DNA of 64,000 nt from Candidatus Fraserbacteria bacterium (GCA_947085185.1 CAMTVK010000003.1:964-64963); one strand, 5' to 3'; shown: positions 30,899 to 62,938, counted from the first letter of the stretch. Notes: generated by a model from the sequence alone, not told the origin. Numbers and translations: made by a program.

Positions 30899-31538
30899 GT
30901 ATCTGTGCTAAGTCTTCGGGGGTATCTATGTCCCATTGGGTTGGCTCTTCGTGGGGGGCGAGCTCTATTTTCACGGCGCTCTCCCAATATTGTGTGAGAA
31001 TCTTTATCCCGCTTGCGTCGCCGGAGAGCTTTTCAAATTCTCCAAAGAGTTCTTTGGGCAGGGCCACGGGGCGTCCTGGGGACCCCTGATAGATGGGAAA
31101 ACAGAGTTTCCGGGAGCCGAGAAAAGCCTCGACGACTCGCGCGATGAGCTCTTTGGTCATCAAGGGCATATCGCCCAAGAGCACGACGGCCCCAGCAGAG
31201 TGCTTGGGCACGGCGGCCAGCCCACACTTGAGCGATTCCGCCCGGCCCTGCCCCCACTGGGGATTCTTGAGCACGCGCAGCTTGGGGGAATCTTTGAGCT
31301 CTTCAAGGGCTTGGAGGGCTTTTTCGCACTCATATCCCAAGACGAGGATCACCGGGTCGAGTGGGGCTTGTAAAGCTTCTTTGAGCGCGTGATAGAGCAC
31401 GGCGTGCCCCCCCACAGGGAAGAGCAGCTTATTCTGTCCGAAGCGACGGCTCGCTCCGGCAGCCAGCACAACCCCAGGCAGGGTCTCTTCTGAAGACCCT
31501 ACGGGCTCTTTAAGATCCCACGCTTCTCCAAGATCCAT
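30885..31538 (-). CDS. MobA-like NTP transferase (molybdenum cofactor cytidylyl/guanylyltransferase-like)
   Basis: VVLAAGASRRFG motif; start chosen at MDLGEAW. Confidence 0.65.
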   Translation of the reverse strand: MDLGEAWDLKEPVGSSEETLPGVVLAAGASRRFGQNKLLFPVGGHAVLYHALKEALQAPLDPVILVLGYECEKALQALEELKDSPKLRVLKNPQWGQGRAESLKCGLAAVPKHSAGAVVLLGDMPLMTKELIARVVEAFLGSRKLCFPIYQGSPGRPVALPKELFGEFEKLSGDASGIKILTQYWESAVKIELAPHEEPTQWDIDTPEDLAQILRAS

Positions 31539-32623
31539 AACCCGCTTCTCATATCGCTCCCTAATACATACTTTCCGAAGGGATAGACATCCCAAAAGCC
31601 GTCGAAGGGATGGGGGAAGCGCGACCGTCCCCCGTAGGGGTCGAACGCCGCGACTTCTTTGGGCTCTTGGGGGTTGCTGTACTCGAAGACCCGAATCCCA
31701 TTGGTGTAGTACGCGACGTACCCGAAGGCCCCGTCTATGACGACGTTATGGGGAATAGTGCCGTTGCCGTACTGCCCCAAAAATTTGATCTCTTGGGGAT
31801 TGGAGATCTCGAAGATTCTGATGGGTTCGCCGGGGGCTTCGTCGGCGGTGAAGACGAGTTTGCCGTCGGGGCTGGGCCAGATGTTATGGCTGGCTCCGCG
31901 CCCATAGACGTGATGGGCGATCAGTTTATAGCTGAGCTGTTGGGGGTTATCTAAGTTCTCAAAGTCAATGATCCAGAAGCCCGTGTCCCAGGCAGCCGCA
32001 TAGAGTCGGTTGCCGATGACCGTGACATCGTGGACGTTGGTGGGGGCTTTGTCCTCGAATTCGACGGGGCCGAAGCTGATGGGCTTAGTGGGGTCAGTCA
32101 AGTCCACCATGAAGAGTTCGCCCTGGCCGCGCCCGATGGTGGGCAGGAAGCAGACTTTGCCGGCAACGAAGACGTTGTGCACTGTGCCATACTCGCTCGA
32201 TTGCACGGTGCTGACGAGCTTAGGGTTCTTCCAGTCGCTGATGTCATAGATTAAGACCCTGCGGCGGTCGGCGGCGCGCACGAGCCCGCAGACCAGAAAA
32301 TTCTCATAAAAATCTATATCGCGGCAGTCGCCGCGGATCTCGCGGATATCAAGAGTGGCGATTTGAGGGTTTTGGGGATCGCTGAACTCCACAAGATGGA
32401 TGAGCGATCCTGCGGCGACTCCGGCGAGGGTGTCGCGGGCCCACATGCCGGTGGCATGCCAGGGTTCTCCGTCGATGAGGCTAAGGGGCAGCTCGACCTG
32501 CTTAATTGGGACTAAGAGCGATTCACTCGACTGGGCGAGGGCGGGGCGTGTTCTGCCAGCAAGCAAGAGGGCTCCCAGGCCCAGGCGCAGGAACGTGCGG
32601 CGTGTCAGGCTGTGTTTGGCCAT
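31499..32623 (-). CDS. Tat-secreted LVIVD-repeat beta-propeller protein
   Basis: Twin-arginine signal TRRTFLRLGLGALLLA; repeated D-[IV]-x-[IV]-x-G-N/ W-D hydrophobic blades; AAGGAGG RBS at ATG 32623. Confidence 0.7.
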   Translation of the reverse strand: MAKHSLTRRTFLRLGLGALLLAGRTRPALAQSSESLLVPIKQVELPLSLIDGEPWHATGMWARDTLAGVAAGSLIHLVEFSDPQNPQIATLDIREIRGDCRDIDFYENFLVCGLVRAADRRRVLIYDISDWKNPKLVSTVQSSEYGTVHNVFVAGKVCFLPTIGRGQGELFMVDLTDPTKPISFGPVEFEDKAPTNVHDVTVIGNRLYAAAWDTGFWIIDFENLDNPQQLSYKLIAHHVYGRGASHNIWPSPDGKLVFTADEAPGEPIRIFEISNPQEIKFLGQYGNGTIPHNVVIDGAFGYVAYYTNGIRVFEYSNPQEPKEVAAFDPYGGRSRFPHPFDGFWDVYPFGKYVLGSDMRSGLWILEKRGILKSP

Positions 32624-32911
32624 GCGGTCCTCCTTTGAAGTATAGACAAAGAGTGTGCCCATTGTATCTGGAGTGGGGGTAGGGGTGCAAGAGGGGTCTT
32701 GACAGCGATGGGCTTCTTATGCTAAGATTTTCTTACACAGGAGCGCATGAGACCTTAAAAATGTCTCTGGGCCGAAGGGCACAAAACGCACAAAAAGGGT
32801 CCTGCGCCAACGGGGTTCTGTTCTAGAAGCAAAGGAGGTGGGAATCGAGGACTGAAGCTCATCTCACAATCGCACACTCAATCTTTCAACTCTCGCGCGA
32901 GGTGATCAACA

Positions 32912-34111
32912 GTGAAGTCGTTGAAGTGGTGTAGCATTGCGGTCATTGTAGCACTCTTAGCTGTGTGGGGTAGCCAGGCGCAAGATTGGAACATTCGGTC
33001 AGTGGCTCAAGGGCCCGATGCTGCCAAGAAGCGGGTCGTGGAACCGGACGTAGCCGTGGCGCCTGGTGGTAGAGTCTATGTCAGCTATATCGATCAACAG
33101 GCGAATGCCATCAAGCTCCTTCAGGTTGGAGGAGCAACAGCCGAGCTAGTGCGTGAGAACCGCGTAGTCGGGACGACGGTCGCAGCTACAGATACGCTTG
33201 TGTGCGTCTCCTGGGAAGAGCTCAGCGACGTCCACGAGGTCTGGCAGGCGTGCTGGAACGCTGATCTTTCACTAGTTGTTGAGCCCTGGCGCTTGTCCAC
33301 TGAAGGGATTATCGCAGGCCAGGCTAACGGGGCTGGCTGGGAGGAGTTCGGGGTCAACTTCGATAACACCTTCGCCCCCGATGGCACGCTCTATGCCATC
33401 TGGTCTGAGGATTACGCCAAGCTTGTAGCTGGCAAGTACAAGGACGGGGCTGTGAGCGCTTGCGGAGAATTCCCGCCTGTGCCCATCCCGGATGCTCCCA
33501 TCCGCTATCCCACAATCTACGTCGACAGTGCTGGTGGGGTTTGGGTGGCAAGTGCCGATGTCTCGTATCCTCCAGGACCGAACATCTGGGTCTGGTACTC
33601 TGATGATCAGTGTGCCAGCTGGAAGGGCCCCGTGGATGTTACCCCAACTGGCCTCTACAGTGATGGTGCGGGGATCGTCCGCCTTGGCGATAAGATCTAT
33701 ATTGTGCTCGATGACGATGCGGGTGCTGCTCCGCAAACCGCAGACATCCACGTCTACACCTGTGATGCCACACCCGCTGGCGTGGCCAACTGTGTGCGCA
33801 GTGTCGTCTACCAAAGAGGCGGCTTCCCGCACATCGCCACCGATGGCAAGGGGCTGTACGTTACCTCCAACGATAATGATGTGCGTGAGGTGCAGTTCGC
33901 CTACTCCTGCGATGCGGGAGTCAGTTGGACGCCGGCGCATATCCCCAACAAGTGGAATCTTGGCTACAGGGACCCGGACTTCGGAGCCGTGCTCTCGCGC
34001 GTCCGAGTAGCGACGAGCGCAGGATCGGACAGCGTCTATGTAGTGTGGTTCTGGCGCGCTGAGGGCAGGAGCAACATCATGCTCGCCTCGCGGCCCAAGC
34101 CCTGCCAATAG
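32912..34111 (+). CDS. Secreted BNR/sialidase-like repeat protein
   Basis: Signal peptide; SxDxGxxW-like motifs (SCDAGVSW, SDDQCASW); GTG start with GAGGTGA RBS. Confidence 0.6.
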   Translation: MKSLKWCSIAVIVALLAVWGSQAQDWNIRSVAQGPDAAKKRVVEPDVAVAPGGRVYVSYIDQQANAIKLLQVGGATAELVRENRVVGTTVAATDTLVCVSWEELSDVHEVWQACWNADLSLVVEPWRLSTEGIIAGQANGAGWEEFGVNFDNTFAPDGTLYAIWSEDYAKLVAGKYKDGAVSACGEFPPVPIPDAPIRYPTIYVDSAGGVWVASADVSYPPGPNIWVWYSDDQCASWKGPVDVTPTGLYSDGAGIVRLGDKIYIVLDDDAGAAPQTADIHVYTCDATPAGVANCVRSVVYQRGGFPHIATDGKGLYVTSNDNDVREVQFAYSCDAGVSWTPAHIPNKWNLGYRDPDFGAVLSRVRVATSAGSDSVYVVWFWRAEGRSNIMLASRPKPCQ

Positions 34112-34189
34112 ACCAAAGCTTATGACGGCTGAGGGGCTAAGCTCACGAGGGCTTGGCCCCTCTTTTTATAATACGCAGCTCTCCGTGAT

Positions 34190-34456
34190 TCACGCACCCC
34201 GGCAGTCCCCCCCGCGCACCCATAAGTCAATGATCGTGATCATAACTGAGTCGCTAATGGGCTGCGGTATATCCGGCCCAACACGGCTCTGCGCGATCCA
34301 TAAATCTAACGCGATCACGATCTCCTGATCGTCAATGAAGTGATCAGGGACGTTGAGCTTGGCGATCAAGCACGGGATGGTGCGCGCCTCTTCAGCCGCT
34401 CCCATAAGCCCAGCAAGCACCAGAAGAAACACACTGACCCTACAGATACTACGCAT
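34190..34456 (-). CDS. Small secreted protein carrying two copies of the I-x-F/D-x-Q-x-x-x-A-[IL]-x-LW motif found in downstream PKD proteins
   Basis: Signal peptide MRSICRVSVFLLVLAGLMGA; motifs IDDQEIVIALDLWIAQ and ISDSVMITIIDLW. Confidence 0.45.
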   Translation of the reverse strand: MRSICRVSVFLLVLAGLMGAAEEARTIPCLIAKLNVPDHFIDDQEIVIALDLWIAQSRVGPDIPQPISDSVMITIIDLWVRGGDCRGA

Positions 34457-35720
34457 ATAACCCCCGCGCGCGTGCCGCTGTGGCCACACGGTCCACCGCG
34501 ACCATATACGCTGCTGTCCTCAGATCGATCTTCTCTCTCTGAGCCATCTCCCAGACGCGATTGAACGCATTGACCATGAAGCGTCGCAGGCGCCTGTCCA
34601 CCCTCTCCGCACTCCAGAAATAGAACGCCCGATCTTGCACCCACTCGAAATACGAGACCGTCACCCCACCGGAGTTCGCCAAAATGTCCGGCACAACAAC
34701 AATACCCCGGTCGTGCAGGATACGGTCGGCCTCGAGGGTCGTGGGGCCGTTGGCGAGCTCGATCACTATCTGAGCGCGAATCTTCTGAGCGTTGGCTGTC
34801 GTAATTTGATTCTCGATCGCTGCAGGAACTAAGATATCGCAGTCGAGCTCGAGCAGCTCTTGATTGGTGATGGGCTCGGTATCTCTGAATCGCACCACAG
34901 AACCGGTCCTGCGCTCGTGTTCTTTGAGGGCGACAGGGTCAATGCCGTGGGGGTTATAGACGCCGCCCTTGGCGTCACTGACGGCAATAATTTTTGCGCC
35001 GCCTTCGGCACAGAAGCGCGCCATGCTTGAGCCGACGTTGCCAAACCCTTGAATAGCGACGCGTGTCCCTTCAAGCTTCATATTGAGACGCTTGAGGGTC
35101 TCTTGGAGCACAAAGTAGCCGCCTCGTCCGGTGGCGGTGTCGCGCCCTTCGGATCCCCCTAAGACTTTAGGCTTTCCCGTCACCAGGCCGGGCATGAACA
35201 TGCTGTTATGATGCATACTGATCGTATCAACGAACCAGGCCATCTCGCGCTCGCCGGTGAAGACATCTGGGGCAGGGATGTCTATATCCGGCCCGATGAT
35301 GGGAGCGATCTCGGCCGCATACCGCCGGGTGATGCGCTCCAGCTCCCCTGGAGAGAGCTCCAACGGATTACAGCGCACGCCCCCCTTGGCCCCACCAAAG
35401 GGGATCTGTGCGACCGCGCACTTCCATGTCATCAGAATCGCGAGCGCTTCGACTTCTTCGAGCGTGACGTCCGGGTGATAGCGAATCCCGCCCTTGGCTG
35501 GTCCCAAGACCAAGTGATGCTGGACGCGAAAGCCCTCAAAGTGCTGGACGCTCCCATCGTCCATGACCACGGGAAAGACGACGATGAGCTTGCGCTTGGG
35601 ATGGCGCAAGAGAATCCGCAACGGCTTTTCCAACTTCAGGCGGTCCGCAGCCTCATCAAAAAAGTGATGGGCCATCTCCAACATGCCCATCTCCGAGCGA
35701 CGCTTGAGTTCTTCAGACAT
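34449..35720 (-). CDS. gdhA: Glutamate dehydrogenase (Glu/Leu/Phe/Val dehydrogenase family)
   Basis: GGAKGGVRCNP active-site motif, GFGNVG Rossmann. Confidence 0.9.
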   Translation of the reverse strand: MSEELKRRSEMGMLEMAHHFFDEAADRLKLEKPLRILLRHPKRKLIVVFPVVMDDGSVQHFEGFRVQHHLVLGPAKGGIRYHPDVTLEEVEALAILMTWKCAVAQIPFGGAKGGVRCNPLELSPGELERITRRYAAEIAPIIGPDIDIPAPDVFTGEREMAWFVDTISMHHNSMFMPGLVTGKPKVLGGSEGRDTATGRGGYFVLQETLKRLNMKLEGTRVAIQGFGNVGSSMARFCAEGGAKIIAVSDAKGGVYNPHGIDPVALKEHERRTGSVVRFRDTEPITNQELLELDCDILVPAAIENQITTANAQKIRAQIVIELANGPTTLEADRILHDRGIVVVPDILANSGGVTVSYFEWVQDRAFYFWSAERVDRRLRRFMVNAFNRVWEMAQREKIDLRTAAYMVAVDRVATAARARGLYA

Positions 35721-35721
35721 A

Positions 35722-38127
35722 TTAGTTCTTTTCTTCCTCCTCTTTTTCGGTTAAGTTTCTGTGGATCTCTTGCAATCGCGCTTCGACGCGCGCGTAGATC
35801 GTCCCTTCTGGGAACTTCCCATCAGGGCCGCGCTCACCTGCCGCAAGCCCTGTGAGCACCTCCAACCCTTCTTCGACAGTCCGGATCGCATAGATATGAA
35901 ATCTCTTCTCACGGACGGCGTCAATGATCTCCTGACGCAGCATGAGATTGTCTCTGTTCTGTTCGGGAATGATGACCCCCTGCTCGCCGGTCAGCCCGTG
36001 AACTTTACAGATCTTAAAGAACCCGTCAATCTTCTCGTTGACGCTCCCGATGGGCTGGATCTCGCCCTTCTGGTTGACCGAACCGGTGACAGCTATCCCT
36101 TGTTTGAGGGGAACCCCAGCTAATGCCGAGATGAGCGCATACAGTTCTGTGATGGAAGCGGAATCCCCGTCGATCTTCGAATAGCTCTGCTCAAAGGTGA
36201 TGCTCGCCGACAGGCTCAATGGGCGCGCGATCGCGAATTTTTCGCCGAGCCAGCCCTTCAAGATCAAGACGCCCTTGCTATGGATCTTCCCAGAAAGGGC
36301 TGCTTCACGCTCGACGTTGAGCACGCCCTCTTTCCCAGTGAAGACATTCGCCGTGATGCGCGTGGGCCGCCCAAACGAAAAGTCGGTCAACTGTAATACG
36401 GAAAGCCCATTCACACATCCGACGCGCTCCCCGCGCGTGTCTACTAAGATATCCCCACGGGCGATGAGCTCATGGATCTTCTCTTCCATCAGATTATTGC
36501 GATAGTATTTCTCTGCGATGGCGCGTTCGACGTGCTCAGCCTTCACGAAGCGCGCTCCCTCGCGCTCGGCCCAGTAAGACGCCTCACGGACTATGGTCAT
36601 TAAGTCGCTGAAGCGCGCCGAGAGCTTCTTTTGATCCCCGGTGAGCTCCGCGGCATACTCTGCCAAGCGTGCTAATGCGGACTTGTGAAAGTGCTTGAGC
36701 CCCGGTCGCTCCCTCACGCGCGCCGCCACAAACGGCCCCAATTGCTTGATAGAGCGCTCCTCCCAAGGGAGCTCGTCGTCGAAATCGGCCTTGACCGAGA
36801 AGAGCTTGGGAAAGTCCTCATCGAGTGCCTCTAACAGATAATAGAGTTCTGGGCTGCCAATGAGAATGACCTTCACCGAGAGGGGCACCGGTTCGGGCTT
36901 GAGGCTCTCCGTCGTGGTAAACCCCATCATCGTCGCGGGGTCTTCGATCTGGATGCGCCCGCTGCGCAGCGCGATCTTGAGCGCCTCCCAACTGATCTCG
37001 TATTTTAAGAGATTATGGGCATTGAGCACTAAGTAGCCCCCGTTGGCTTGGTGCAGCGAGCCCGGCTTGATCATCGTGAAGTCAGCGGTCATGACGCCAA
37101 ACTGAACTCTTCGCTCGATCTTGCCGAAGAGATTCGTATACGTCGCATTCTCCTCCACCACGACCGGGGTCCCTTTGGTCTTGCTATGATCTACCAAGAC
37201 ATTCACTGTATAGCGTGTGAACAGATCGATCATGCCGGTGGGGAGGGGGACGCCTTCACCGTCTTGGTGGGACTGTGGAGAGGGTTCAGCGAATCTCTGA
37301 ATATTTTCTAAGATATCAGTTTCGACGTCCTCGAGAAACTCTAGCACGCGTGGGTGTTCACGGTAGCGGGCCTGCAGGCGCTGGATAAGGGGCTTGACGG
37401 TGTAGAGCGCAATATCTCGATCGAGTTCTTCGATAGCTTTGAGACGCTGCTCTTCGATGCCTTCGAGTTGGCTCATCGCTTCTTGGATGATCTCTTGGAG
37501 CTCTTCGCGGTGGCGCGCGATCTTGTGGCGTTCCCGCTCGGGAAGTTTTTCAAAGATCTCTTCGGTGAGGGGTTTGCCATCGAGCAGAGGGGTTGCTTGG
37601 AATCCCAAAGCCGACAGTTGGAAGAGGAAGCCGCGGCGCTGGGCCTCGTGTGCGACGGCGTTGGCGACTTTATTCCGCAGCTCGTTGAACTGCTCATCGA
37701 GGCTTTGGCGCTTCTTGCGGTACTCTTCGCTGTGATAGGCGGCGGGGATGCGCTCGCGCAGCTTCTCTATGAGATCTTTCATATCTGTAGCGAGCTTCCG
37801 CCCCATCCCGGGAGGCAAGAGAATATAGCGTGGGCAGTAGGGGTCATCGAAATTATGCACATAGCACACATCTTGCGGAGGAGGCTCTTTAAGACTGATC
37901 TTCTGAAGGAACGCTTGGACGATCGAGTTCTTCCCCGTGCCGGGGCTGCCGGCAACATAGATATTATAGCGAAAATCTTTGATGCCCAAGCCCAGCTCCA
38001 GGGCGCGCAGGGCGCGCTCTTGGCCGATCACATCATCGAGGGGCTTGCATTCGGCTGTGGTCTCAACCCCGAAGATCTCAGGGTCGCAGCGGCGGCGCAG
38101 CTCTTCCGGCTCGAGGCGATGTGCCAT
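35722..38127 (-). CDS. LonC-like protease (degenerate AAA-like domain with long helical insert + S16 Lon protease domain)
   Basis: Walker A GSPGTGKN but no acidic Walker B (YLVLNAHNLL); C-terminal DGDSAS (Ser) and …EKIDG (Lys) Lon dyad; start at ATG 38127 with AAGGAG RBS. Confidence 0.75.
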   Translation of the reverse strand: MAHRLEPEELRRRCDPEIFGVETTAECKPLDDVIGQERALRALELGLGIKDFRYNIYVAGSPGTGKNSIVQAFLQKISLKEPPPQDVCYVHNFDDPYCPRYILLPPGMGRKLATDMKDLIEKLRERIPAAYHSEEYRKKRQSLDEQFNELRNKVANAVAHEAQRRGFLFQLSALGFQATPLLDGKPLTEEIFEKLPERERHKIARHREELQEIIQEAMSQLEGIEEQRLKAIEELDRDIALYTVKPLIQRLQARYREHPRVLEFLEDVETDILENIQRFAEPSPQSHQDGEGVPLPTGMIDLFTRYTVNVLVDHSKTKGTPVVVEENATYTNLFGKIERRVQFGVMTADFTMIKPGSLHQANGGYLVLNAHNLLKYEISWEALKIALRSGRIQIEDPATMMGFTTTESLKPEPVPLSVKVILIGSPELYYLLEALDEDFPKLFSVKADFDDELPWEERSIKQLGPFVAARVRERPGLKHFHKSALARLAEYAAELTGDQKKLSARFSDLMTIVREASYWAEREGARFVKAEHVERAIAEKYYRNNLMEEKIHELIARGDILVDTRGERVGCVNGLSVLQLTDFSFGRPTRITANVFTGKEGVLNVEREAALSGKIHSKGVLILKGWLGEKFAIARPLSLSASITFEQSYSKIDGDSASITELYALISALAGVPLKQGIAVTGSVNQKGEIQPIGSVNEKIDGFFKICKVHGLTGEQGVIIPEQNRDNLMLRQEIIDAVREKRFHIYAIRTVEEGLEVLTGLAAGERGPDGKFPEGTIYARVEARLQEIHRNLTEKEEEEKN

Positions 38128-38221
38128 CTTTGGTCTCCTTGCTCTGAATGCCTCCCCCTCCAAGGAGGAGATGAGGGTGAGGTCTTCTAGAATACAGAAT
38201 AAAGCTCAGGGGAGCAAGGAG

Positions 38222-38938
38222 TCAGCGAGCGACTCTGATCTCGCTGTCCCCAACGACGGAGACCGCCAGGCGCGGCGAAAAGCTCGTCACCAGCCCTTTC
38301 ACAGAGAAGACATGAACTGGAGCATTGGACGGGACGACCAGATCATAGACGACGGCTACAGTCTGCCCTGGGGAGAACCGTTGTGTCCACAGCCATTGGA
38401 GCTCAGATTTTTTTAAGATTGCTCCGCCGTTTTGGACTTCTTTCATGGTCCAGGCTGGGGGAGGGTCTTCGTCGAGCCCAAGCCCGTTGACAATCTGATT
38501 GATGCGCAGTACTATAATGACTCGCACGGTCTGGCCAGGGGCGACGGAGCCGCTGGGGGGCAGGACGAACGAGCGTCGCACCATCACGGGCGCGTCTGTG
38601 ACTTTGACGATCTTGCTGAGTGAGCCCGTGGCGCCGCGATTGTCGGTCACTCTCAAATTGATGCGCCACTCCCCGGCGCGCTCGAAGAGCCGCGTCGTTG
38701 TTGGCACTGTCTTGGCTTCGTCGAAGCGACCGTCGCCGTTGAAGTCCCATTCGTATTTTATTATAGCGCCGTCGGGATCTTTGGAAGCCGAGGCATCGAA
38801 GAGCACGACGGTATTCGTATCAGGATTTTGCGGGGTGAAGCGGAAATCGGCGCGGGGCGGAGTGTTGCTCTGTGCTTGTGCTCCTCCCCAAAGCCCCAGC
38901 GCTATGAACAGCATCAGCGTTGTGAGAGAGATTCTCAT
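38222..38938 (-). CDS. Secreted PKD-domain protein
   Basis: Signal peptide; PKD motif FDASASKDPDGAIIKYEWDFNGDG…LRVTDNRG; GLGLDEDPP…W element shared with neighbours. Confidence 0.7.
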   Translation of the reverse strand: MRISLTTLMLFIALGLWGGAQAQSNTPPRADFRFTPQNPDTNTVVLFDASASKDPDGAIIKYEWDFNGDGRFDEAKTVPTTTRLFERAGEWRINLRVTDNRGATGSLSKIVKVTDAPVMVRRSFVLPPSGSVAPGQTVRVIIVLRINQIVNGLGLDEDPPPAWTMKEVQNGGAILKKSELQWLWTQRFSPGQTVAVVYDLVVPSNAPVHVFSVKGLVTSFSPRLAVSVVGDSEIRVAR

Positions 38939-38973
38939 CGCACAGACCTCCACGGGACAGTTCCAAACTCTGT

Positions 38974-40845
38974 TTACGGGAGCGGCCCGAAGACGGACGC
39001 CCCGGTCAGCCAATACGCTACGAGCGTCTGTAATATCTTGAGATCGATTTTACCAAAGACTACCTTGCCGTCAGCCTCTCGGTTCTTCACCGGTTTATCA
39101 CCGAGCCAAAAGAACGAGACGGCCGATTGAATTTGCTCGAAGTTGATCGTCGTTGTCTCCAGCCAAAGATTGACCTTGGGGTTGGCGGCATCGCTGACGT
39201 CCATGCGCGCGAAGATCACGGGGAAGGGGAGTCTGGTGACGACTTTGATCTCCGCTTCGCCGGCGATGGCAAGCTCAAACGCCGGTGAGGCGCTGCTGAT
39301 CGAACCGGAGAGCTTGACCACCCGCGGTGTCGGGTCTTTAGGAGGTTCAGGAATAGTCAGCTCATACTCGATGGTGCGCACGGTCCCTGGCTCGAGGACT
39401 TCCAAGAAGACCCAGAGCACTTCGCCTGGGAGTGGTCGTGCGGTGCCGCTCTCTGTGGAGACGAGGTTGAACGTGAGATCGTTAGGGAAGCGCTCAGTGA
39501 CGACGAGGCCATTGATGCGATCCAGGGCCTGGATAGTGATCTTGACTCTGACGCGCTCGCCGTGAATAGTCTCGTCGTTGGGGAGGTTCGTATCAAGAGT
39601 TCGGGTAGCGATGGCTCGCGGGGTAAAGACTTTGACGGTCTTTGTTGCGCTCGCTCTTTCGCCGTCGGTGTCGGTGACGGTCAGAGTCACAGAATAGCTT
39701 CCGTCGGCGCTGTAGCGATGGACGGGGTTCTGTTCGCTTGAGCTTGTCCCGTCGCCAAAGTTCCACGCCCACGCGACGATCCCCACATCATCGGTCGAGC
39801 GATCTAGGAACGTGATGGGCTCATTGGCCTTGGGCTCAGCGGGCGTGAACTCAAAGCTCACCGTAGGTGGGCGGTTGCGATCCCGCGCGACAATAGACAG
39901 AGCAGCGACCGTGGGGGTGACGAGCCTCCCCCGCGCGTCCAAATAACTGAGGGTGGGCTTGATGAGCGCTGTTCCCGTCTGAGAGCTGGTCACGGTAAAG
40001 CTCGCTTCGAAGGTCTCCCCAGCGCTCAAGCCGTCGAGCTCCCACACGATCGTCGTCGTGGTATCGGGGTTCTTCGTGACGCGATTGGGGGCATTGAGCG
40101 TCGCGATCCCGTAGGTCAAGAACGCGGGCAGCACGAGCGTAATTCTTATCTGCCGCGCGACGACTCTCCTTCCCAACGCTTGAGCGATCTGTTGCGGGAC
40201 GAGCTCACTGAACTGCTCGAAGAACTGTCCCTGGGTGAGCCGGGCCAGCTCGCGCAAGAGCGTCTTATCGGGGGTGCGCCCCGTCGCAATAGTGAAGATC
40301 GTCACGCCGCTCTCGGCAGATCGTTGGGCTTGCGACAGAGGAGTTCGCCCGACGTTGGCCCGCCCGTCGCTCACCAAGACCATGGCCCACGAAGCGTCTT
40401 CGCGCCCGTTTCTCTGCAGAGTCTCGAGGGCTGTGGCAATCCCTTCCCCCACGGCCGTCTTGCCCAAGGGGCGCAGGAGCTTCAGCCCTTGGCGGACAGC
40501 TTCATGATCGAACGTGAGCGGGACATCCACACGCGCGTCCGTCCCAAACGAGACAAGACCAACACGATCTGATGGCGACAGCGCCTCAACGATCGCCGTG
40601 CCGATCTTCTCCATCTCGCGAACGTTCACAGTCGCCGAGCGATCTATGACGAGAAAGAGATCTGTTGGGGCGCGCGCGCCGGGCTCGCCTGCCGAGAGCC
40701 GCACGGTGATCGTGCCCTCCTGGTTGACAAAGAGCGCCGTGGGGGAGATGCTCAGCTCCAGCTGCACCGGCGGCGCGGCGACTTGAGCCAGCCCAGTCAG
40801 TGCTCCAAGACCAAGCAGGCTCATCGCGCCGAGTATTCGTCTCAT
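38974..40845 (-). CDS. Secreted vWA + PKD multidomain protein with C-terminal shared module
   Basis: Signal peptide; vWA (LVIDRSATV…LVSDGRANVG); PKD (WNFGDGTSS…LTVTDTDG); C-terminal ~80-aa module (…INFEQIQSAVSFFWLGD…). Confidence 0.75.
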   Translation of the reverse strand: MRRILGAMSLLGLGALTGLAQVAAPPVQLELSISPTALFVNQEGTITVRLSAGEPGARAPTDLFLVIDRSATVNVREMEKIGTAIVEALSPSDRVGLVSFGTDARVDVPLTFDHEAVRQGLKLLRPLGKTAVGEGIATALETLQRNGREDASWAMVLVSDGRANVGRTPLSQAQRSAESGVTIFTIATGRTPDKTLLRELARLTQGQFFEQFSELVPQQIAQALGRRVVARQIRITLVLPAFLTYGIATLNAPNRVTKNPDTTTTIVWELDGLSAGETFEASFTVTSSQTGTALIKPTLSYLDARGRLVTPTVAALSIVARDRNRPPTVSFEFTPAEPKANEPITFLDRSTDDVGIVAWAWNFGDGTSSSEQNPVHRYSADGSYSVTLTVTDTDGERASATKTVKVFTPRAIATRTLDTNLPNDETIHGERVRVKITIQALDRINGLVVTERFPNDLTFNLVSTESGTARPLPGEVLWVFLEVLEPGTVRTIEYELTIPEPPKDPTPRVVKLSGSISSASPAFELAIAGEAEIKVVTRLPFPVIFARMDVSDAANPKVNLWLETTTINFEQIQSAVSFFWLGDKPVKNREADGKVVFGKIDLKILQTLVAYWLTGASVFGPLP

Positions 40846-40878
40846 CGTCCCGCTCCTTCTTGCATCCAAGCTCTGGGT

Positions 40879-43017
40879 CTAGCGCGTCGCGGCCGGCAGA
40901 GGCCGGTCCACCGGCGTGTCCGTCAGCCAGTACGAGATGAGCGTCTGGAGCATCCGGAAGTCTATGGTCTTGCCGCACGTGCCCACGACCTCTTCGTCCT
41001 CAAGCCAGAGCGCAATGGCCGTCTGAATCTGAGCGAAGCTGATCTTGTTCGACAGCGCCACGTCAATCGCGTTCTGCTCCACGTTGAGATACGCGATCGC
41101 TACGGGGATGTCGAGACATTCGACGACGTTGACGGTCTGATCTCTTCCAACTGCGCTTTCAAAGCGCGGCGCAAACGACTCGATGAGCCCTTGAATCGTG
41201 TACGGGCTGATGATCTCGTCGGTGGGGACGGTCACTTCGTAGAGGATGCTGCGGCGCGCGCCTGCCGGGATCTTTTCTGTAAAGATCCAGGTGTTGACAG
41301 ATTGCTTGAACGCGGCGCTGCCGCCGCCCTCACGAGGACGTACCTCCCAGCGCTCGGGCAGCTTCTCTGTGAGCGTCAGCCCGAATAAGTCTTTTTCGGC
41401 TTGGACTTCGACGCGCACTCTGAAGATATTGCCGCCTGGCGCGCGCAGATAGACTTGATAGAACGGCAATGGCGTCAAGATCGAGCGCATCGCACTTCCG
41501 CCGATCGCAGCGTCTTCCGGGATGGTGCGATCTACAGGGACGTTCGCCAAGTGATGGGCCACGATCTGCTTGAGCGATTCAAGATCGAGCGGGGCGTCGC
41601 ATGTTCCGGGCACAGGCGTGTCTTCTTGCCAGAACGCGACCGCCCGCTGCATCTGATCGAACGTGATCTCCTCGGACATGCGCAAATCTACGGTATTCGT
41701 AGCCGTGTCCAAGTGCGCCATAGCGACGAGAGCGGGCAAGCACGTCACCACAGAGATCCTCGAGAAGGGCTCGTTGGTCTCGCCCAGCACCGGGATCTCT
41801 TTGATATCGGGGACGGTGCTGGAGACGCGCCCTACGATATCGAAGTCTTGGGGGAGCGGCCCGCCGATCAACTGATCGGTCTTGGGAATGGTGACGTCGT
41901 AGACGATGCGGCGGGTCTCACCGCTGCGCACGATCGTGGGGAAGACCCACTGGGTCGTAGCGGCCTTGAATGTCGCTCCGGCGCTGTCGATGGGGGTGAC
42001 CTCCCAGTTGGCGGGCAGGTCTTCGTCCAATCCCAGACCGCTCATGGACGTCCTGACAGTGATCGTGACCGTCACGCGGAAGGTCGTTCCGGGGGCAGCA
42101 TGAGTCGTCGAGAGGGTGCGCGTGGCGAACGCAACTTCTTTCTCGACCATAATAGTCTTAGTGATCTGGCCGATGGCCCCCTTGTCGTCGGTGACTCTTA
42201 GGGTCACTTTCACTGCGCCGATCTGGGTGAACGTCCACTGAACTGTTGGCTTATCGGTAGAGATCTCAAAGATGCCATCAGAATTGAAGTCCCACTCGTA
42301 CTTGACGATCTTGCCATCGGCGACGGTGCTTGGGCGAGCGTCGAACGTCACGGGCACGTTGACGCTCACTACGGAGGGGGAGAACGTGAAATCTGCTTTG
42401 GGGGGAGCGCGGCGGAAGGCGCTCAAGACCAAGGGTTCTACTAGGCTAGGAAGCTGAAATCTTTCTGGAGAGAGAGGGTCACCGCTGAGCACCTGCCAGC
42501 CGTCGATGCCCCGGGTGAACGTGGGGGTGATGACGATCTCGAACTCATCGGGCAGCCCGCTGATCACGACGCCGTCGGCGCGCTCGGGTAGCCAGCGCCA
42601 GGTCATCGTTGCCGTGGGCGGCGTGAACTCATACGTATCGGCGGGGTCATCGCGCAGGGCGATCCGCGCCGTGGGCGGCAGCCCATCGAAGCGCAGGGTT
42701 GCCTCTCCGCCGGCGGGGTTTCCCGGCTTGCTCAAGATAATAATTAAGCTGAGATCGCGCGTGTTGGCATCCCGATAGAAAAAGACCAGAGCTTGATTAG
42801 CGACCTCTAAGCCCGTATTGGGCTGATCGTTGGCGAAGCGATAGAAGTCTACGGCCGACCCCGGCTGACTGAGCGGGGTGATCGGGGTTGAGAACGCTCC
42901 TTGACGCGCAAGAAAGAACGAAGTCGTCTGCTCCAAGACAGTTCCTTGGCTGGCTCCGCTGAGAGCGATCAGGGCCAGTACTATAAGCCCACAGAGAGAC
43001 TGTCGCATGACACGCAT
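40879..43017 (-). CDS. Secreted PKD-domain protein with two copies of the shared ~80-aa C-terminal module
   Basis: Signal peptide from internal ATG 43017 (AAGGAGG RBS); PKD (KYEWDFNSDG…LRVTDDKG); modules …ITFDQMQRAVAFWQED…GTCD… and …ISFAQIQTAIALWLED…GTCG…. Confidence 0.75.
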   Translation of the reverse strand: MRVMRQSLCGLIVLALIALSGASQGTVLEQTTSFFLARQGAFSTPITPLSQPGSAVDFYRFANDQPNTGLEVANQALVFFYRDANTRDLSLIIILSKPGNPAGGEATLRFDGLPPTARIALRDDPADTYEFTPPTATMTWRWLPERADGVVISGLPDEFEIVITPTFTRGIDGWQVLSGDPLSPERFQLPSLVEPLVLSAFRRAPPKADFTFSPSVVSVNVPVTFDARPSTVADGKIVKYEWDFNSDGIFEISTDKPTVQWTFTQIGAVKVTLRVTDDKGAIGQITKTIMVEKEVAFATRTLSTTHAAPGTTFRVTVTITVRTSMSGLGLDEDLPANWEVTPIDSAGATFKAATTQWVFPTIVRSGETRRIVYDVTIPKTDQLIGGPLPQDFDIVGRVSSTVPDIKEIPVLGETNEPFSRISVVTCLPALVAMAHLDTATNTVDLRMSEEITFDQMQRAVAFWQEDTPVPGTCDAPLDLESLKQIVAHHLANVPVDRTIPEDAAIGGSAMRSILTPLPFYQVYLRAPGGNIFRVRVEVQAEKDLFGLTLTEKLPERWEVRPREGGGSAAFKQSVNTWIFTEKIPAGARRSILYEVTVPTDEIISPYTIQGLIESFAPRFESAVGRDQTVNVVECLDIPVAIAYLNVEQNAIDVALSNKISFAQIQTAIALWLEDEEVVGTCGKTIDFRMLQTLISYWLTDTPVDRPLPAATR

Positions 43018-43418
43018 CGCGGCCTCCTTTGTCGTCATACCTGCCTCAGTATAGCGAGCGATCCCCCCTGAGACAGTGATTCAAATTACCCATTGCGCAC
43101 GTTTCCCCTTGGCTTGAGCATAGCACAGCGTGCGGCCAAAGGCAAGCGGGCGTAATGGCAATTACAGTCTAAGAAAATCTCTAGGGGCTTTCGAGGTCTG
43201 GGGACAGCATCGAAGTGGGCGTTTGTCTGGAGGCAGGGTGCGCTCTGTCCAAATGGTTGGGCCCCATGCCGTGTGACAGGAGGGTCGAGGCTTTGTTCGC
43301 GGCAATCTGGCGGGCCAGATTGACGATGGCTTCGGATGGGGCCCAACTCACTGGTCATAGTATGGAGGGGGAACATGGAGAGGTCAATGAGCTCAATCAT
43401 GAGAAAATCTGAGATTCG

Positions 43419-43751
43419 TTAGGTTCGCTCGATATTGCGAAGGAATTCTGCGTACAGATCAACGTCACCGTTCTTGGCGATCTGTTTGTCCTCATAGGGT
43501 ACCCCCAGCCGACGATAGAACTCGTCGGCGATATTTTTGAAGACGCCCGTTACAAGGGCGATAATCCAGTAGCGCAGCGCGCCGAAGTGGAGCTTGATCA
43601 CTTTGAGTGCCAGCCGGGTGCATGTGTAATTGAGAAGCCCAGCGAACGCCGTGTCTGAGCCGTGGGCTTTCGCTTGAGTGACGATCTGCTGGGCGAGCTC
43701 GTCAATCAACGGGTCAAGGGGCCGACGGTCTTGCTGAGTGATATAGGGCAT
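43419..43751 (-). CDS. Hypothetical protein (110 aa)
   Basis: ORF with plausible start; family not recognised. Confidence 0.45.
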   Translation of the reverse strand: MPYITQQDRRPLDPLIDELAQQIVTQAKAHGSDTAFAGLLNYTCTRLALKVIKLHFGALRYWIIALVTGVFKNIADEFYRRLGVPYEDKQIAKNGDVDLYAEFLRNIERT

Positions 43752-62278: not shown

Positions 62279-62938
62279 ATGAAGAGTCTCAAAGTCGTGA
62301 GCCTGGGGCTGATGGTTGTGAGCGTGGGGCTATTGGCGTTGGCCGATGGACAGCCCAAGCAGCCCACTCCGTCCAAGCCCACCGTCCAGCGCGGTTCGAT
62401 CTTTGTGGACGTTCCCGCAGGTCACTATGCTGCTAGTGATTTGAAGTTTTTGGTGGAGCGCGGCATCATCACCGGGTTGCCCAACGGGGAATTCCAGGGC
62501 ACCAAGGCCCTCACTCGCTACGACGCCGCCATGCTCATCGCCCGGGCTATAAGATACTTACAGAACGACCCGGAGAAGATCCAGCCGGCAGATCTCAAGA
62601 TCCTGCAAGACTTGATCTTCAAGCTCTCAGAGCGCGTGCAGTCGCTGGACAAGCTCGAGCAAGATGTGGCGGCCCTCAAGAGCCGACCGACAAGCGACAG
62701 CAGCGCGGATGTGACGGCGCTCAAGGAGAAGCTCAGCCGGTCTGAGGCGCAGCTTGCCAGCCTCCAAAACCAAGTGCAGAATCTCAAGAGCGAGCTGCAG
62801 CAGGCCAAAGCCGCCTCCGGAGGCGTCGTCCCCGACGAGGTCGAGGCGCTGCGCCGCCAGGTCAATAATAGTCTCTTGATCGCGGCGTTTGCTGCGCTCG
62901 CTGGCGTTGTCGCGGTGATCTGGGCCATTGTGACCTAA
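62279..62938 (+). CDS. SLH-domain protein with coiled coil and C-terminal TM anchor
   Basis: Signal peptide; SLH motif FVDVPAGHYAASDLKFLVERGIITG…TRYDAAMLIARA; C-terminal hydrophobic helix. Confidence 0.8.
   Translation: MKSLKVVSLGLMVVSVGLLALADGQPKQPTPSKPTVQRGSIFVDVPAGHYAASDLKFLVERGIITGLPNGEFQGTKALTRYDAAMLIARAIRYLQNDPEKIQPADLKILQDLIFKLSERVQSLDKLEQDVAALKSRPTSDSSADVTALKEKLSRSEAQLASLQNQVQNLKSELQQAKAASGGVVPDEVEALRRQVNNSLLIAAFAALAGVVAVIWAIVT

Follow-up and report, generated by a model that had tools for sequence, protein, structure and literature searches.

A conserved gene triad of Bipolaricaulota combining a CLIPPER-like sandwich with a predicted three-helix domain

Type I dockerins (PF00404) are the cohesin-binding modules of cellulosomes. 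Gram-positive sortase-assembled pili combine a VWA tip adhesin, a CnaA/CnaB shaft pilin and a small base pilin. According to PMC12617251, CLIPPER/DUF11 (PF01345) is an isopeptide domain of CnaA-like type found in fibrillar adhesins, in which an intramolecular Lys-Asn bond forms with a catalytic Asp; the parts of that source consulted make no mention of a helical module appended to CLIPPER. Here we compare these systems, together with EF-hand pairs, with a locus in a 64,000-nucleotide stretch of DNA from Candidatus Fraserbacteria (the window). Genes and protein features described below lie on the minus strand unless stated otherwise.

Three paralogous proteins with a common cassette

Genes C (40879..43017, 712 aa, with an alternative ATG at 43038), B (38974..40845, 623 aa) and A (38222..38938, 238 aa) have the coordinates and reading frames given by an earlier note on this DNA. 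The paralogy proposed there is retained on proper alignment (blastp E values of 1e-40 for A-C, 1e-22 for A-B and 2e-29 for B-C), and each protein has, as also claimed, a signal-peptide-like N-terminus and a PKD domain (Pfam PKD_4/PKD, 59.6, 68.4 and 46.4 bits in A, B and C; cut-off 27), to which we add a CLIPPER/DUF11-like beta-sandwich. Secretion of these proteins, and of the smaller protein D discussed below, was inferred by reading their N-terminal sequences. In Bipolaricaulota, C, B and A are conserved as a unit of three genes for paralogous, beta-sandwich-rich proteins with signal-peptide-like N-termini, and their order is kept at 47-56% identity in three genomic contexts with differing flanking genes.

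Protein C, whose orthologues fall into about 70 full-length clusters, runs from the signal-peptide-like N-terminus through an all-beta domain, PKD, sandwich 1 and module 1 to sandwich 2 and module 2 (AlphaFold2 (AF2) model, pLDDT 89.4). The conserved N-terminal domain (aa 32-200, 42418..42924) contains strands only in the model and gave no Pfam or NCBIfam match; Y59, G104, D123, D124, D127, W142, D148 and G149 are invariant in 53 orthologues. After the PKD domain (aa 204-290, 42148..42408; PF18911 E 4.2e-12, PF00801 E 1.1e-10) comes sandwich 1 (aa 296-419, 41761..42132), which carries GLGLDEDLPANW, is modelled as beta strands and keeps G327, G329, E332 and P335 invariant in the same 53 sequences. 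Sandwich 2 (aa 508-627, 41137..41496) was placed from the model and from a blastp alignment of A 133-236 with C 526-631 (E 1e-13).

In protein B, the signal-peptide-like N-terminus is followed by a VWA domain (aa 62-209, 40219..40662; PF00092 65.9 bits, cut-off 23.8, E 7.1e-18), a beta region without an assigned family, PKD (aa 324-406, 39628..39876; PF18911 E 5.6e-19), a sandwich (aa ~410-531, 39253..39618) that aligns with those of A and C, and a module. Among the three proteins VWA is confined to B, in agreement with the earlier note. Read against the motif DxSxS...T...D, its MIDAS-like site is D67-R-S-A-T71, then GKTAVGEG and VSDGRAN; B-like relatives have DRSAT, DTSAS or DKSVD at this site, and the B-like architecture was seen again among relatives from a library-wide search. 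Protein A has only the signal-peptide-like N-terminus, PKD (38600-38866, PKD_4) and a sandwich with GLGLDEDPPPAW (38225-38587, blastp against C). It gave no match to the module HMM and stops exactly at the last sandwich strand, which is the sandwich/module boundary. The common cassette is PKD, CLIPPER/DUF11-like sandwich and, in B and C, an unclassified ~80-aa three-helix domain.

Two motifs that had been described as common to all three proteins are less uniform than that. Only A and sandwich 1 of C have an exact GLGLDEDxPxxW; the versions of B (NGLVVTERFPNDL) and of the sandwich 2 loop of C (FGLTLTEKLPERW) are degenerate. KYEWDF occurs in A and C, but B reads WAWNFGDG.

Judged by sequence, the sandwich is likely related to CLIPPER/DUF11, although PF01345 stays below its gathering score of 24.6 bits here (22.0 bits in B, 21.8 in sandwich 1 of C) and Pfam gave no such match in A; several orthologues have precomputed matches. 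As in CLIPPER proteins, a DUF11-matching sandwich, here before each module, belongs to secreted multi-domain proteins beside PKD-type domains, but it occurs in single or double copies and not in long tandem stalks. An isopeptide bond seems unlikely, because the first strand conserves R300, S303 and T304 across the 53 orthologues but no Lys. The triad also recalls sortase-assembled pili, as a cluster for three secreted Ig-like paralogues that differ in size and include one with VWA. Unlike pilins, however, the proteins have no LPXTG, C-terminal transmembrane segment or pilin motif, and the cluster contains no sortase gene. Sequence reading, Pfam and NCBIfam gave no LPXTG/sortase, PEP-CTERM, T9SS CTD or lipoprotein signal in A, B or C, which bears out the earlier statement on sortase and PEP-CTERM: C, B and A end in ...PVDRPLPAATR, ...SVFGPLP and ...EIRVAR without a hydrophobic tail, and no Cys was read at the signal-peptide cleavage region.

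A predicted three-helix domain compared with dockerins and EF-hands

The module HMM finds two copies in C, module 1 (aa 420-499, 41521..41760; 114 bits) and module 2 (aa 628-707, 40897..41136; 123 bits), and one in B (aa 532-623, 38977..39252, placed by alignments; 62 bits), the numbers counted previously. Structure prediction with AF2, a check that had been suggested, gives both C copies as three helices with pLDDT ~95 (429-434, 453-465 and 479-491 in module 1; 637-642, 661-672 and 687-699 in module 2). Across 53 C orthologues, C426, C473 and W463 are conserved in module 1, and C634, C681, Q663 and W671 in module 2. In the family as a whole the Trp is invariant and the Cys pair is conserved in most copies; the B copy lacks the pair and has a longer loop between helices 2 and 3. 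The ~80-aa domain arose when a ~24-residue loop-helix unit, with the consensus I-[STD]-x-x-[QE]-[IL]-Q-x-A-[IV]-x-x-W-x(4)-V, was duplicated in tandem, as half-versus-half hhalign comparisons indicate (96-98%, E 1e-9 to 1e-12). The acidic type reaches 97.7% in them (E 1.4e-12), the window type 96.4% (E 1.1e-9).

Searches of Pfam, NCBIfam and PDB sequences gave no significant match to the module, in line with the earlier failure to assign it to a known domain, and its sequence marks it as a new domain family of an ordinary kind. An exhaustive search of 1.84 billion proteins, a step also proposed earlier, returned only 108 relatives; where organism names are given, these are Bipolaricaulota/Acetothermia. 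Very acidic proteins of halophile-like composition have a shorter form.

The statement that the module is neither dockerin nor EF-hand holds for membership, in that all profile and hhalign tests were negative, but the layout of a duplicated loop-helix is common to both. Like the module, type I dockerins have 60-80 residues, usually sit at the C-terminus of diverse secreted proteins, consist of a tandemly duplicated ~22-24-residue loop-helix segment and can occur in non-cellulosomal surface proteins. By contrast, the module loops read IDVALSNKISFAQ and GTCGKTIDFRML without DxNxDG calcium loops, and the module has an extra short N-terminal helix and usually a Cys pair. EF-hand pairs (PF13499 and related) share the two loop-helix units, with the Ile and the Glu/Gln of the module at positions equivalent to 8 and 12, and differ in the extracellular setting, invariant Trp and Cys pair of the module and in the calcium ligands, most of which are missing from the window loops.

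One reading to be weighed is that the module is related to dockerins or is an EF-hand pair, in degenerate form, with calcium bound in a structural role. The duplicated unit with its Ile and Gln/Glu speaks for such kinship, as do faint matches to ALG-2 (E 1.3) and to EF-hand_7 (2 of 83 members, best E 1.3e-3) and a canonical 12-residue loop, DADDDGTIEDDE, in P0264, a relative that JGI names an EF-hand protein. P0264 is, however, the only relative with such a loop and reaches 15.3 bits where the cut-off is 30, and every other EF-hand and dockerin score is likewise far under threshold. No member exceeded the thresholds of PF13499 or PF00036, and Dockerin_1 matched none of the 83 module sequences at E<=10. 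In hhalign, calmodulin reached 1.3%, and a pair of dockerin sequences, of which one came from P0216, reached 0.3% and 0.6%. P0216 also contains a cohesin, and there Dockerin_1 detects the true dockerin but misses the modules of the same protein. At loop positions 3 and 12 the window copies have no acidic residue, and Pfam matched no cohesin in the window proteins. We regard this kinship as improbable.

A free-standing copy in protein D and the gene neighbourhood

Gene D (34190..34456, 88 aa) encodes a signal-peptide-like N-terminus and one divergent module (aa 26-86, 34199-34381). The two motif copies that the earlier note had seen here are not two modules; they are the two halves of one. The proposal that the module also exists on its own in this small protein fared better, and by its sequence D is a putatively secreted free-standing copy of the helical domain. 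Against the broad module profile D reaches 94% in hhalign (E 1.4e-7), and against the acidic-type profile 87%. When the window was scanned in six frames with the module HMM (911 ORFs), D ranked next after B and C (E 1.4e-3), and it is the best remaining match in five independent loci. The D family in Bipolaricaulota has 28 invariant columns, and all 43 of its members match a module profile built without D in one register, at 17-20 bits. The AF2 model of D (pLDDT 68) has three helices in the same order as the module models.

These low bit scores, and the fact that D is not among the 108 relatives from the library-wide search, would fit a convergent resemblance, in which two amphipathic Trp-containing helices arose without common descent with, or a functional tie to, C, B and A. 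Short helical profiles can also inflate hhalign probabilities, and the Cys positions of D differ from those of the C modules. Yet the two hhalign results, the single alignment register, the five loci and the shared helix order argue against convergence, and in D, as in the acidic-type copies, Cys residues stand at both ends of the domain. Convergence appears quite unlikely to us.

The triad and D are separated by a LonC-like protease gene (35722..38163; PF20437 57, PF13654 182, PF20436 85 and PF05362 41.6 bits) and a glutamate dehydrogenase (GDH) gene (34449..35720; PF02812 and PF00208 in relatives). The protease has the LonC helical insert, LonB-like AAA domain and S16 protease domain that define LonC (Pfam) and no signal peptide; its gene is co-directional and tightly packed with the triad. 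The earlier note had placed it in a cell-surface context; it is real and adjacent, but it accompanies the triad in part of the lineage only and is not beside it in loci L026 and L027. GDH is present at this position in some species and absent in others. The start of D overlaps the GDH stop by 8 nt in the window and the LonC stop in some other species. A 14-bp GC-rich hairpin (34131..34162, no strand assigned; terminator scan, sequence) between the 3' ends of D and a convergent gene (32912-34111) is likely a shared terminator at the operon end, and a sigma-70-like match upstream of C (43359..43387, minus strand; 9/12 consensus) is weak evidence of a promoter. Within this one operon, A and D have complementary parts, A a sandwich without module and D a module without sandwich.

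All 12 species that carry D retain the order C-B-A-LonC-(GDH)-D. D is restricted to a shallow clade of 12 species representatives, and because the whole neighbourhood is syntenic there, its linkage is weak evidence of shared function. A-type proteins lie beside C and B in genomes without D nearby; therefore A does not need D. An S-layer context, which had been suggested from an SLH protein gene, was not supported: the gene (62279-62938, strand not given; 28.5 bits) is real but unlinked, 19 kb from the triad beyond purine-synthesis genes, a BTAD/TPR regulator and ClpC, and absent from the syntenic loci examined.

A possible docking role for the module

We propose, with a probability of about 40%, that the module is a docking or anchoring domain of an assembly of C, B, A and D. 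The helical domain would be a portable, non-catalytic element that works in a dockerin-like manner though it is no dockerin. Its most likely partner would be the sandwich to which it is nearly always fused, engaged via the conserved GLGLDE-LP-GW loop. Contacts of sandwich with module, in one chain or across chains, would keep C, B and A together in an extracellular assembly. Adhesion would come from the PKD domains and from VWA/MIDAS in B; in the clade with D, D could fill a module-less sandwich such as that of A. The confidently modelled fold, the occurrence of the module behind varied passengers and alone in D, its coupling to the sandwich, the complementary parts of A and D and the conserved gene linkage speak for this proposal.

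A purely intramolecular cap would account equally well for the tight fusion. Since 101 of 115 full copies (88%) directly follow one particular beta-sandwich, the module could, in place of the freely shared interaction domain suggested by the earlier note, be a helical cap that belongs to the CLIPPER-like sandwich as an integral part, one composite domain without a partner of its own. The cap would stabilise the sandwich in the secreted proteins of a thermophile, with D and the short acidic forms as offshoots in other roles. In the C model the last sandwich strand (VVxCL) runs straight into helix 1 with high pLDDT across the junction, and both Cys of the pair lie inside the module, as expected for a cap. 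Modules nevertheless occur without a sandwich in D, the acidic-type proteins, P0215, P0216, P0221 and P0224; P0197 and P0207 carry free copies in tandem. The sandwich in turn occurs without a module in A and in proteins with the order sandwich-module-sandwich. We consider an integral cap possible but rather unlikely.

The distribution of the module also bears on a third reading, in which it would anchor its passengers non-covalently to the envelope (S-layer, cell-wall polymer or membrane surface), analogous to SLH/CWB2, with D as competitor or regulator. Of 139 copies, 79 lie within 15 aa of the protein end, and in 106 representatives the module comes after enzymes and adhesins as diverse as VWA-PKD, C-type, S8 peptidase, CARDB, PQQ beta-propeller, Big_9/cadherin-like and cohesin/dockerin proteins. 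Module proteins often end in ...[DE]PLP, and many share the extreme C-terminus ...PLP, as B does (...VFGPLP). The proteins have no LPXTG, C-terminal transmembrane segment or lipobox, and therefore need another means of retention. However, the module is unlike any known wall-binding family in Pfam, NCBIfam or PDB sequences, one copy in C is internal, and S8 peptidases carry a further sandwich and a C-terminal tail behind the module. Envelope anchoring thus seems to us an improbable explanation.

A more specific reading, in our view a long shot, is that sandwich and module form a self-complementary pair of acceptor and donor, a cohesin-dockerin analogue that is specific to Bipolaricaulota and independent of calcium, through which C, B, A and D would assemble. 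If so, C would contribute two pairs, B one pair, A an acceptor only and D a donor only; contacts between chains would build a defined extracellular fibre or lattice, with A and D as its chain-end caps.

A triad of paralogous proteins in a six-gene cluster

Six tightly packed minus-strand genes run from ~43.0 kb down to 34.2 kb, encoding protein C (712 aa; 40879–43017), B (623 aa; 38974–40845), A (238 aa; 38222–38938), a LonC-like protease (35722–38163), glutamate dehydrogenase (GDH; 34449–35720) and the 88-aa protein D (34190–34456). Neighbouring genes are separated by gaps of 33–58 nt or else overlap, as does the start of D with the stop of GDH. A promoter-like site lies upstream of C, and a GC-rich hairpin of 14 bp (34131–34162) occupies the space between D and the convergent gene.

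It is firmly established that A, B and C are paralogues forming a conserved triad, and they look like secreted, adhesin-like proteins. Pairwise blastp comparisons gave E values of 1e-40 (A–C), 1e-22 (A–B) and 2e-29 (B–C), bearing out the paralogy proposed in the earlier note, and Pfam placed PKD domains in all three and a VWA domain in B, as described there. When the sequences were read, the N-termini of A, B, C and D all displayed a positive charge and a hydrophobic stretch, then a cleavage-type motif of small residues, in agreement with the signal peptides previously ascribed to the triad; all four proteins lack both a lipobox and a hydrophobic C-terminal tail. A sortase-pilus reading was rejected: both sorting signals and a sortase gene are absent, the former as already remarked in the earlier note.

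The PKD domain is followed by a beta-sandwich in A, B and C, the last of which has two. Its match to DUF11 is sub-threshold (~22 bits against a cut-off of 24.6). DUF11 has lately been renamed CLIPPER, after work that established it as an isopeptide domain of the CnaA-like kind, found in fibrillar adhesins (PMC12617251). A conserved Lys was not found in the first strand of the sandwich, so an isopeptide bond is not predicted. The element GLGLDEDxPxxW, once thought common to all three proteins, sits in the sandwich; A and sandwich 1 of C have it in exact form, B and sandwich 2 of C in degenerate form. Residues G327, G329, E332 and P335 of C are invariant among 53 orthologues.

C also begins with a conserved all-beta domain of ~170 aa (residues 32–200; 42418–42924) that has no match in Pfam or NCBIfam and in which Y59, G104, D123, D124, D127, W142, D148 and G149 are invariant in the 53 orthologues. 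Like the module described below, it may be an unclassified domain, and it could serve C as a ligand-binding head. Many B-type proteins end exactly in ...[DE]PLP (...VFGPLP in the window's B, 38977–38994), and this unusually conserved extreme C-terminus might be a recognition or processing site.

A duplicated helical module and its relatives

Directly after the sandwich comes a module of ~80 aa, present twice in C (residues 420–499 and 628–707) and once in B (residues 532–623), exactly the copies noted before; A ends at the sandwich/module boundary. AlphaFold2 modelling of C from 53 orthologues (mean pLDDT 89.4; module region ~95), a step that the earlier note had suggested, gave both modules a short helix followed by two longer ones. 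Conserved in C orthologues are the Cys pairs C426/C473 and C634/C681, an invariant Trp (W463, W671), Q663 and a VPGTCG loop. Half-against-half hhalign identified the two long helices with their preceding loops as a tandem duplication, both in the window-type family (96.4%, E 1.1e-9) and in a shorter form of the module (97.7%, E 1.4e-12); short helical profiles can inflate such figures, so this support is good, not absolute. As modelled, the module is a small, confidently predicted and putatively disulfide-containing domain built of a duplicated loop–helix.

The earlier verdict that the module fits no known domain held. The module had no significant match in Pfam or NCBIfam in the window proteins, nor in 83 diverse family members scanned singly at E ≤ 10, and a family profile scored against all PDB sequences returned nothing significant (best E 1.3, an EF-hand protein). 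Fold searches were uninformative for the module: the whole C model matched nothing but proteins with tandem Ig-like domains (PrgB, integrins and alpha-2-macroglobulins, for example), and the D model is of modest quality.

Specific candidates were likewise rejected, including the dockerin and EF-hand assignments already dismissed in the earlier note. None of the 83 members had a Pfam dockerin match, and hhalign gave <1% against each of two dockerin sequences, one of them that of P0216, a metagenomic relative; the Pfam model finds the true dockerin of P0216 and misses the modules in the same chain. DUF3717 recurred as matches of 16–18 residues in 6 of 83 members (best E 2.6e-5), which span only one helix of that family's 68-residue model and were thus not taken as membership. 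EF-hand matches were faint and all sub-threshold, with hhalign at 1.3% against calmodulin. However, P0264 (91 aa, JGI metagenome), related to the acidic-type form described below, has DADDDGTIEDDE, a canonical EF-hand loop, as its first loop, unlike most family members, whose loops are degenerate, and Ile and Gln/Glu in the module are spaced like EF-loop positions 8 and 12. These features offer no more than a lead, hinting at distant descent from a loop–helix calcium-binding motif; calcium binding as the module's function seems improbable.

Scoring a module-only profile against 1.84 billion representative proteins, a search likewise suggested earlier, yielded 108 relatives at E ≤ 1e-3, of which 63 reached E ≤ 1e-10. 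Every match with a source name came from Candidatus Bipolaricaulota or Acetothermia. Architectures comprised C-type proteins, many B-type VWA-PKD(-PKD)-sandwich-module proteins with the ...[DE]PLP end, S8 peptidases, a CARDB protein and giant SprB/PKD repeat proteins. P0216 (1184 aa, JGI metagenome) combines true Dockerin_1, Cohesin, HYDIN-like Ig and PKD domains with two modules. The weaker matches are very acidic proteins with the shorter, acidic-type form at their C-terminus (consensus ISLxEIQxAINWWAxxxEVPxTGGxTIxLxxIQxLIxAWA, often bracketed by two Cys). Profile comparison (hhalign 99%, E 6.5e-18) makes its homology to the window module clear; a word-indexed protein search with its cores found only five proteins. 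The composition of the acidic proteins would suggest a halophile ('haloarchaeal') origin.

In a census of 106 representatives with profiles built here, we counted 139 modules, 115 of them full-length. The CLIPPER-like sandwich directly precedes 101 of these 115 (88%), and 79 of the 139 lie ≤15 residues from the C-terminus. Two points are firmly established: sandwich and helical domain form a composite cassette, and the helical domain represents a family that the libraries searched do not contain and that has one free-standing member.

Protein D and gene linkage across genomes

The free-standing member is D; the proteins of its family are ~88 aa long, share 28 invariant columns and all come from Bipolaricaulota. 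D fell below significance in the library-wide module-profile search. A profile iterated without D sequences recovered 43 of 43 family members at 17–20 bits in one register, and hhalign matched D to the broad module profile (94%, E 1.4e-7) and to the acidic-type profile (87%). In a six-frame scan of the window, D was the best match after C and B (E 1.4e-3 among 911 ORFs), as it was in scans of four other loci, and its AlphaFold2 model (pLDDT 68) has the module's three-helix order. Together, these tests support homology and D as one free-standing module: the relationship suspected from two motif copies stands, but the motifs are two halves of a single module.

Scanning for the D family in one genome per species revealed 13 loci in 12 species, all with the order C-B-A-LonC-(GDH present or absent)-D, flanked by a DUF6899 gene upstream and two secreted BNR-like genes downstream on the opposite strand. 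This clade is shallow (C 75–93% identical) and its whole neighbourhood is syntenic, so the linkage of D argues only weakly for a shared function. More informative are genomes where C is 47–56% identical: the C-B-A triad is kept and flanking genes differ, with LonC in one of three genomes and D in none of three; at 32–42% identity, C stands alone. LonC, cited earlier as fitting a cell-surface context, accompanies the triad only in part of the lineage. The SLH gene (62279–62938) invoked for an S-layer context is genuine but unlinked, and that reading was rejected.

The neighbourhood has further features. The window's DUF6899 gene (43419–43751) lies on the same strand directly upstream of C, and keeps this place in most D-bearing species. 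The LonC-like protease has a Walker-A-like GSPGTGKN, with Lys then Asn, and by eye its protease dyad, Ser and Lys, seems to be complete; it lacks a signal peptide, yet adjoins the secreted triad in that part of the lineage. GDH, between LonC and D, occurs in about half of the species (window, L011, L014–L016, L019–L023) and not in the rest (L001, L007, L009, L013, L017, L018), where the start of D overlaps or abuts the LonC stop; a housekeeping gene has been inserted or deleted within an otherwise fixed order. In one species, a BrnT/CopG-type toxin–antitoxin pair lies directly downstream of D, before the BNR-like genes (L007/L008, 10317–10884). On the other side of D (31499–34111), the window encodes an LVIVD-repeat protein, whose N-terminus (RRTFLRLG) is twin-arginine-like, and one of 399 aa that starts with a signal-peptide-like segment and lacks a Pfam match (faint BNR_2 in orthologues); both genes are syntenic across D-bearing species, so that exported proteins abound here outside the operon too. 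Several MAGs that bear the titles 'Fraserbacteria' or 'uncultured Thermotogae' (L016, L017, L018, L023, L025; P0104) carry the same operon at 85–91% protein identity to the Bipolaricaulota version, and are probably mislabelled or misbinned assemblies.

Possible roles of the module

We infer that the module is a docking or anchoring element, with a probability of roughly 0.4; the readings considered overlap, and their likelihoods are not meant to sum to one. Its mosaic, mostly C-terminal spread on unrelated passenger domains is typical of such modules. Anchoring to the envelope itself appears improbable. The near-obligatory fusion to one type of sandwich makes that sandwich the likely contact partner, whether within one chain, as a cap, or between chains, as an assembly. 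A purely structural cap, to which the intrachain contact would correspond, is rather unlikely, although less so than calcium binding or envelope anchoring. As regards docking between chains, the operon encodes A, whose sandwich has no module, and D, a module that has no sandwich, which fits an acceptor/donor scheme. However, A is found without D in other genomes; a split sandwich–module unit, although the boundaries of A and D fit, is therefore a low-probability reading and was rejected as proof of interaction.

We found no paper on the module or operon in the literature searched, including by motif strings. What is new is a domain family, from a phylum about which little is known, and a conserved gene triad, not a new kind of system. 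At present the module adds to the list of uncharacterised extracellular domains and merits a Pfam entry; if docking is true, it would be a calcium-independent counterpart to dockerins and a possible compact tag for protein assembly. The Bipolaricaulota (Acetothermia, OP1) are uncultured, and a triad of adhesin-like secreted proteins with a new domain family offers a concrete starting point for studying how their surface is built or decorated.
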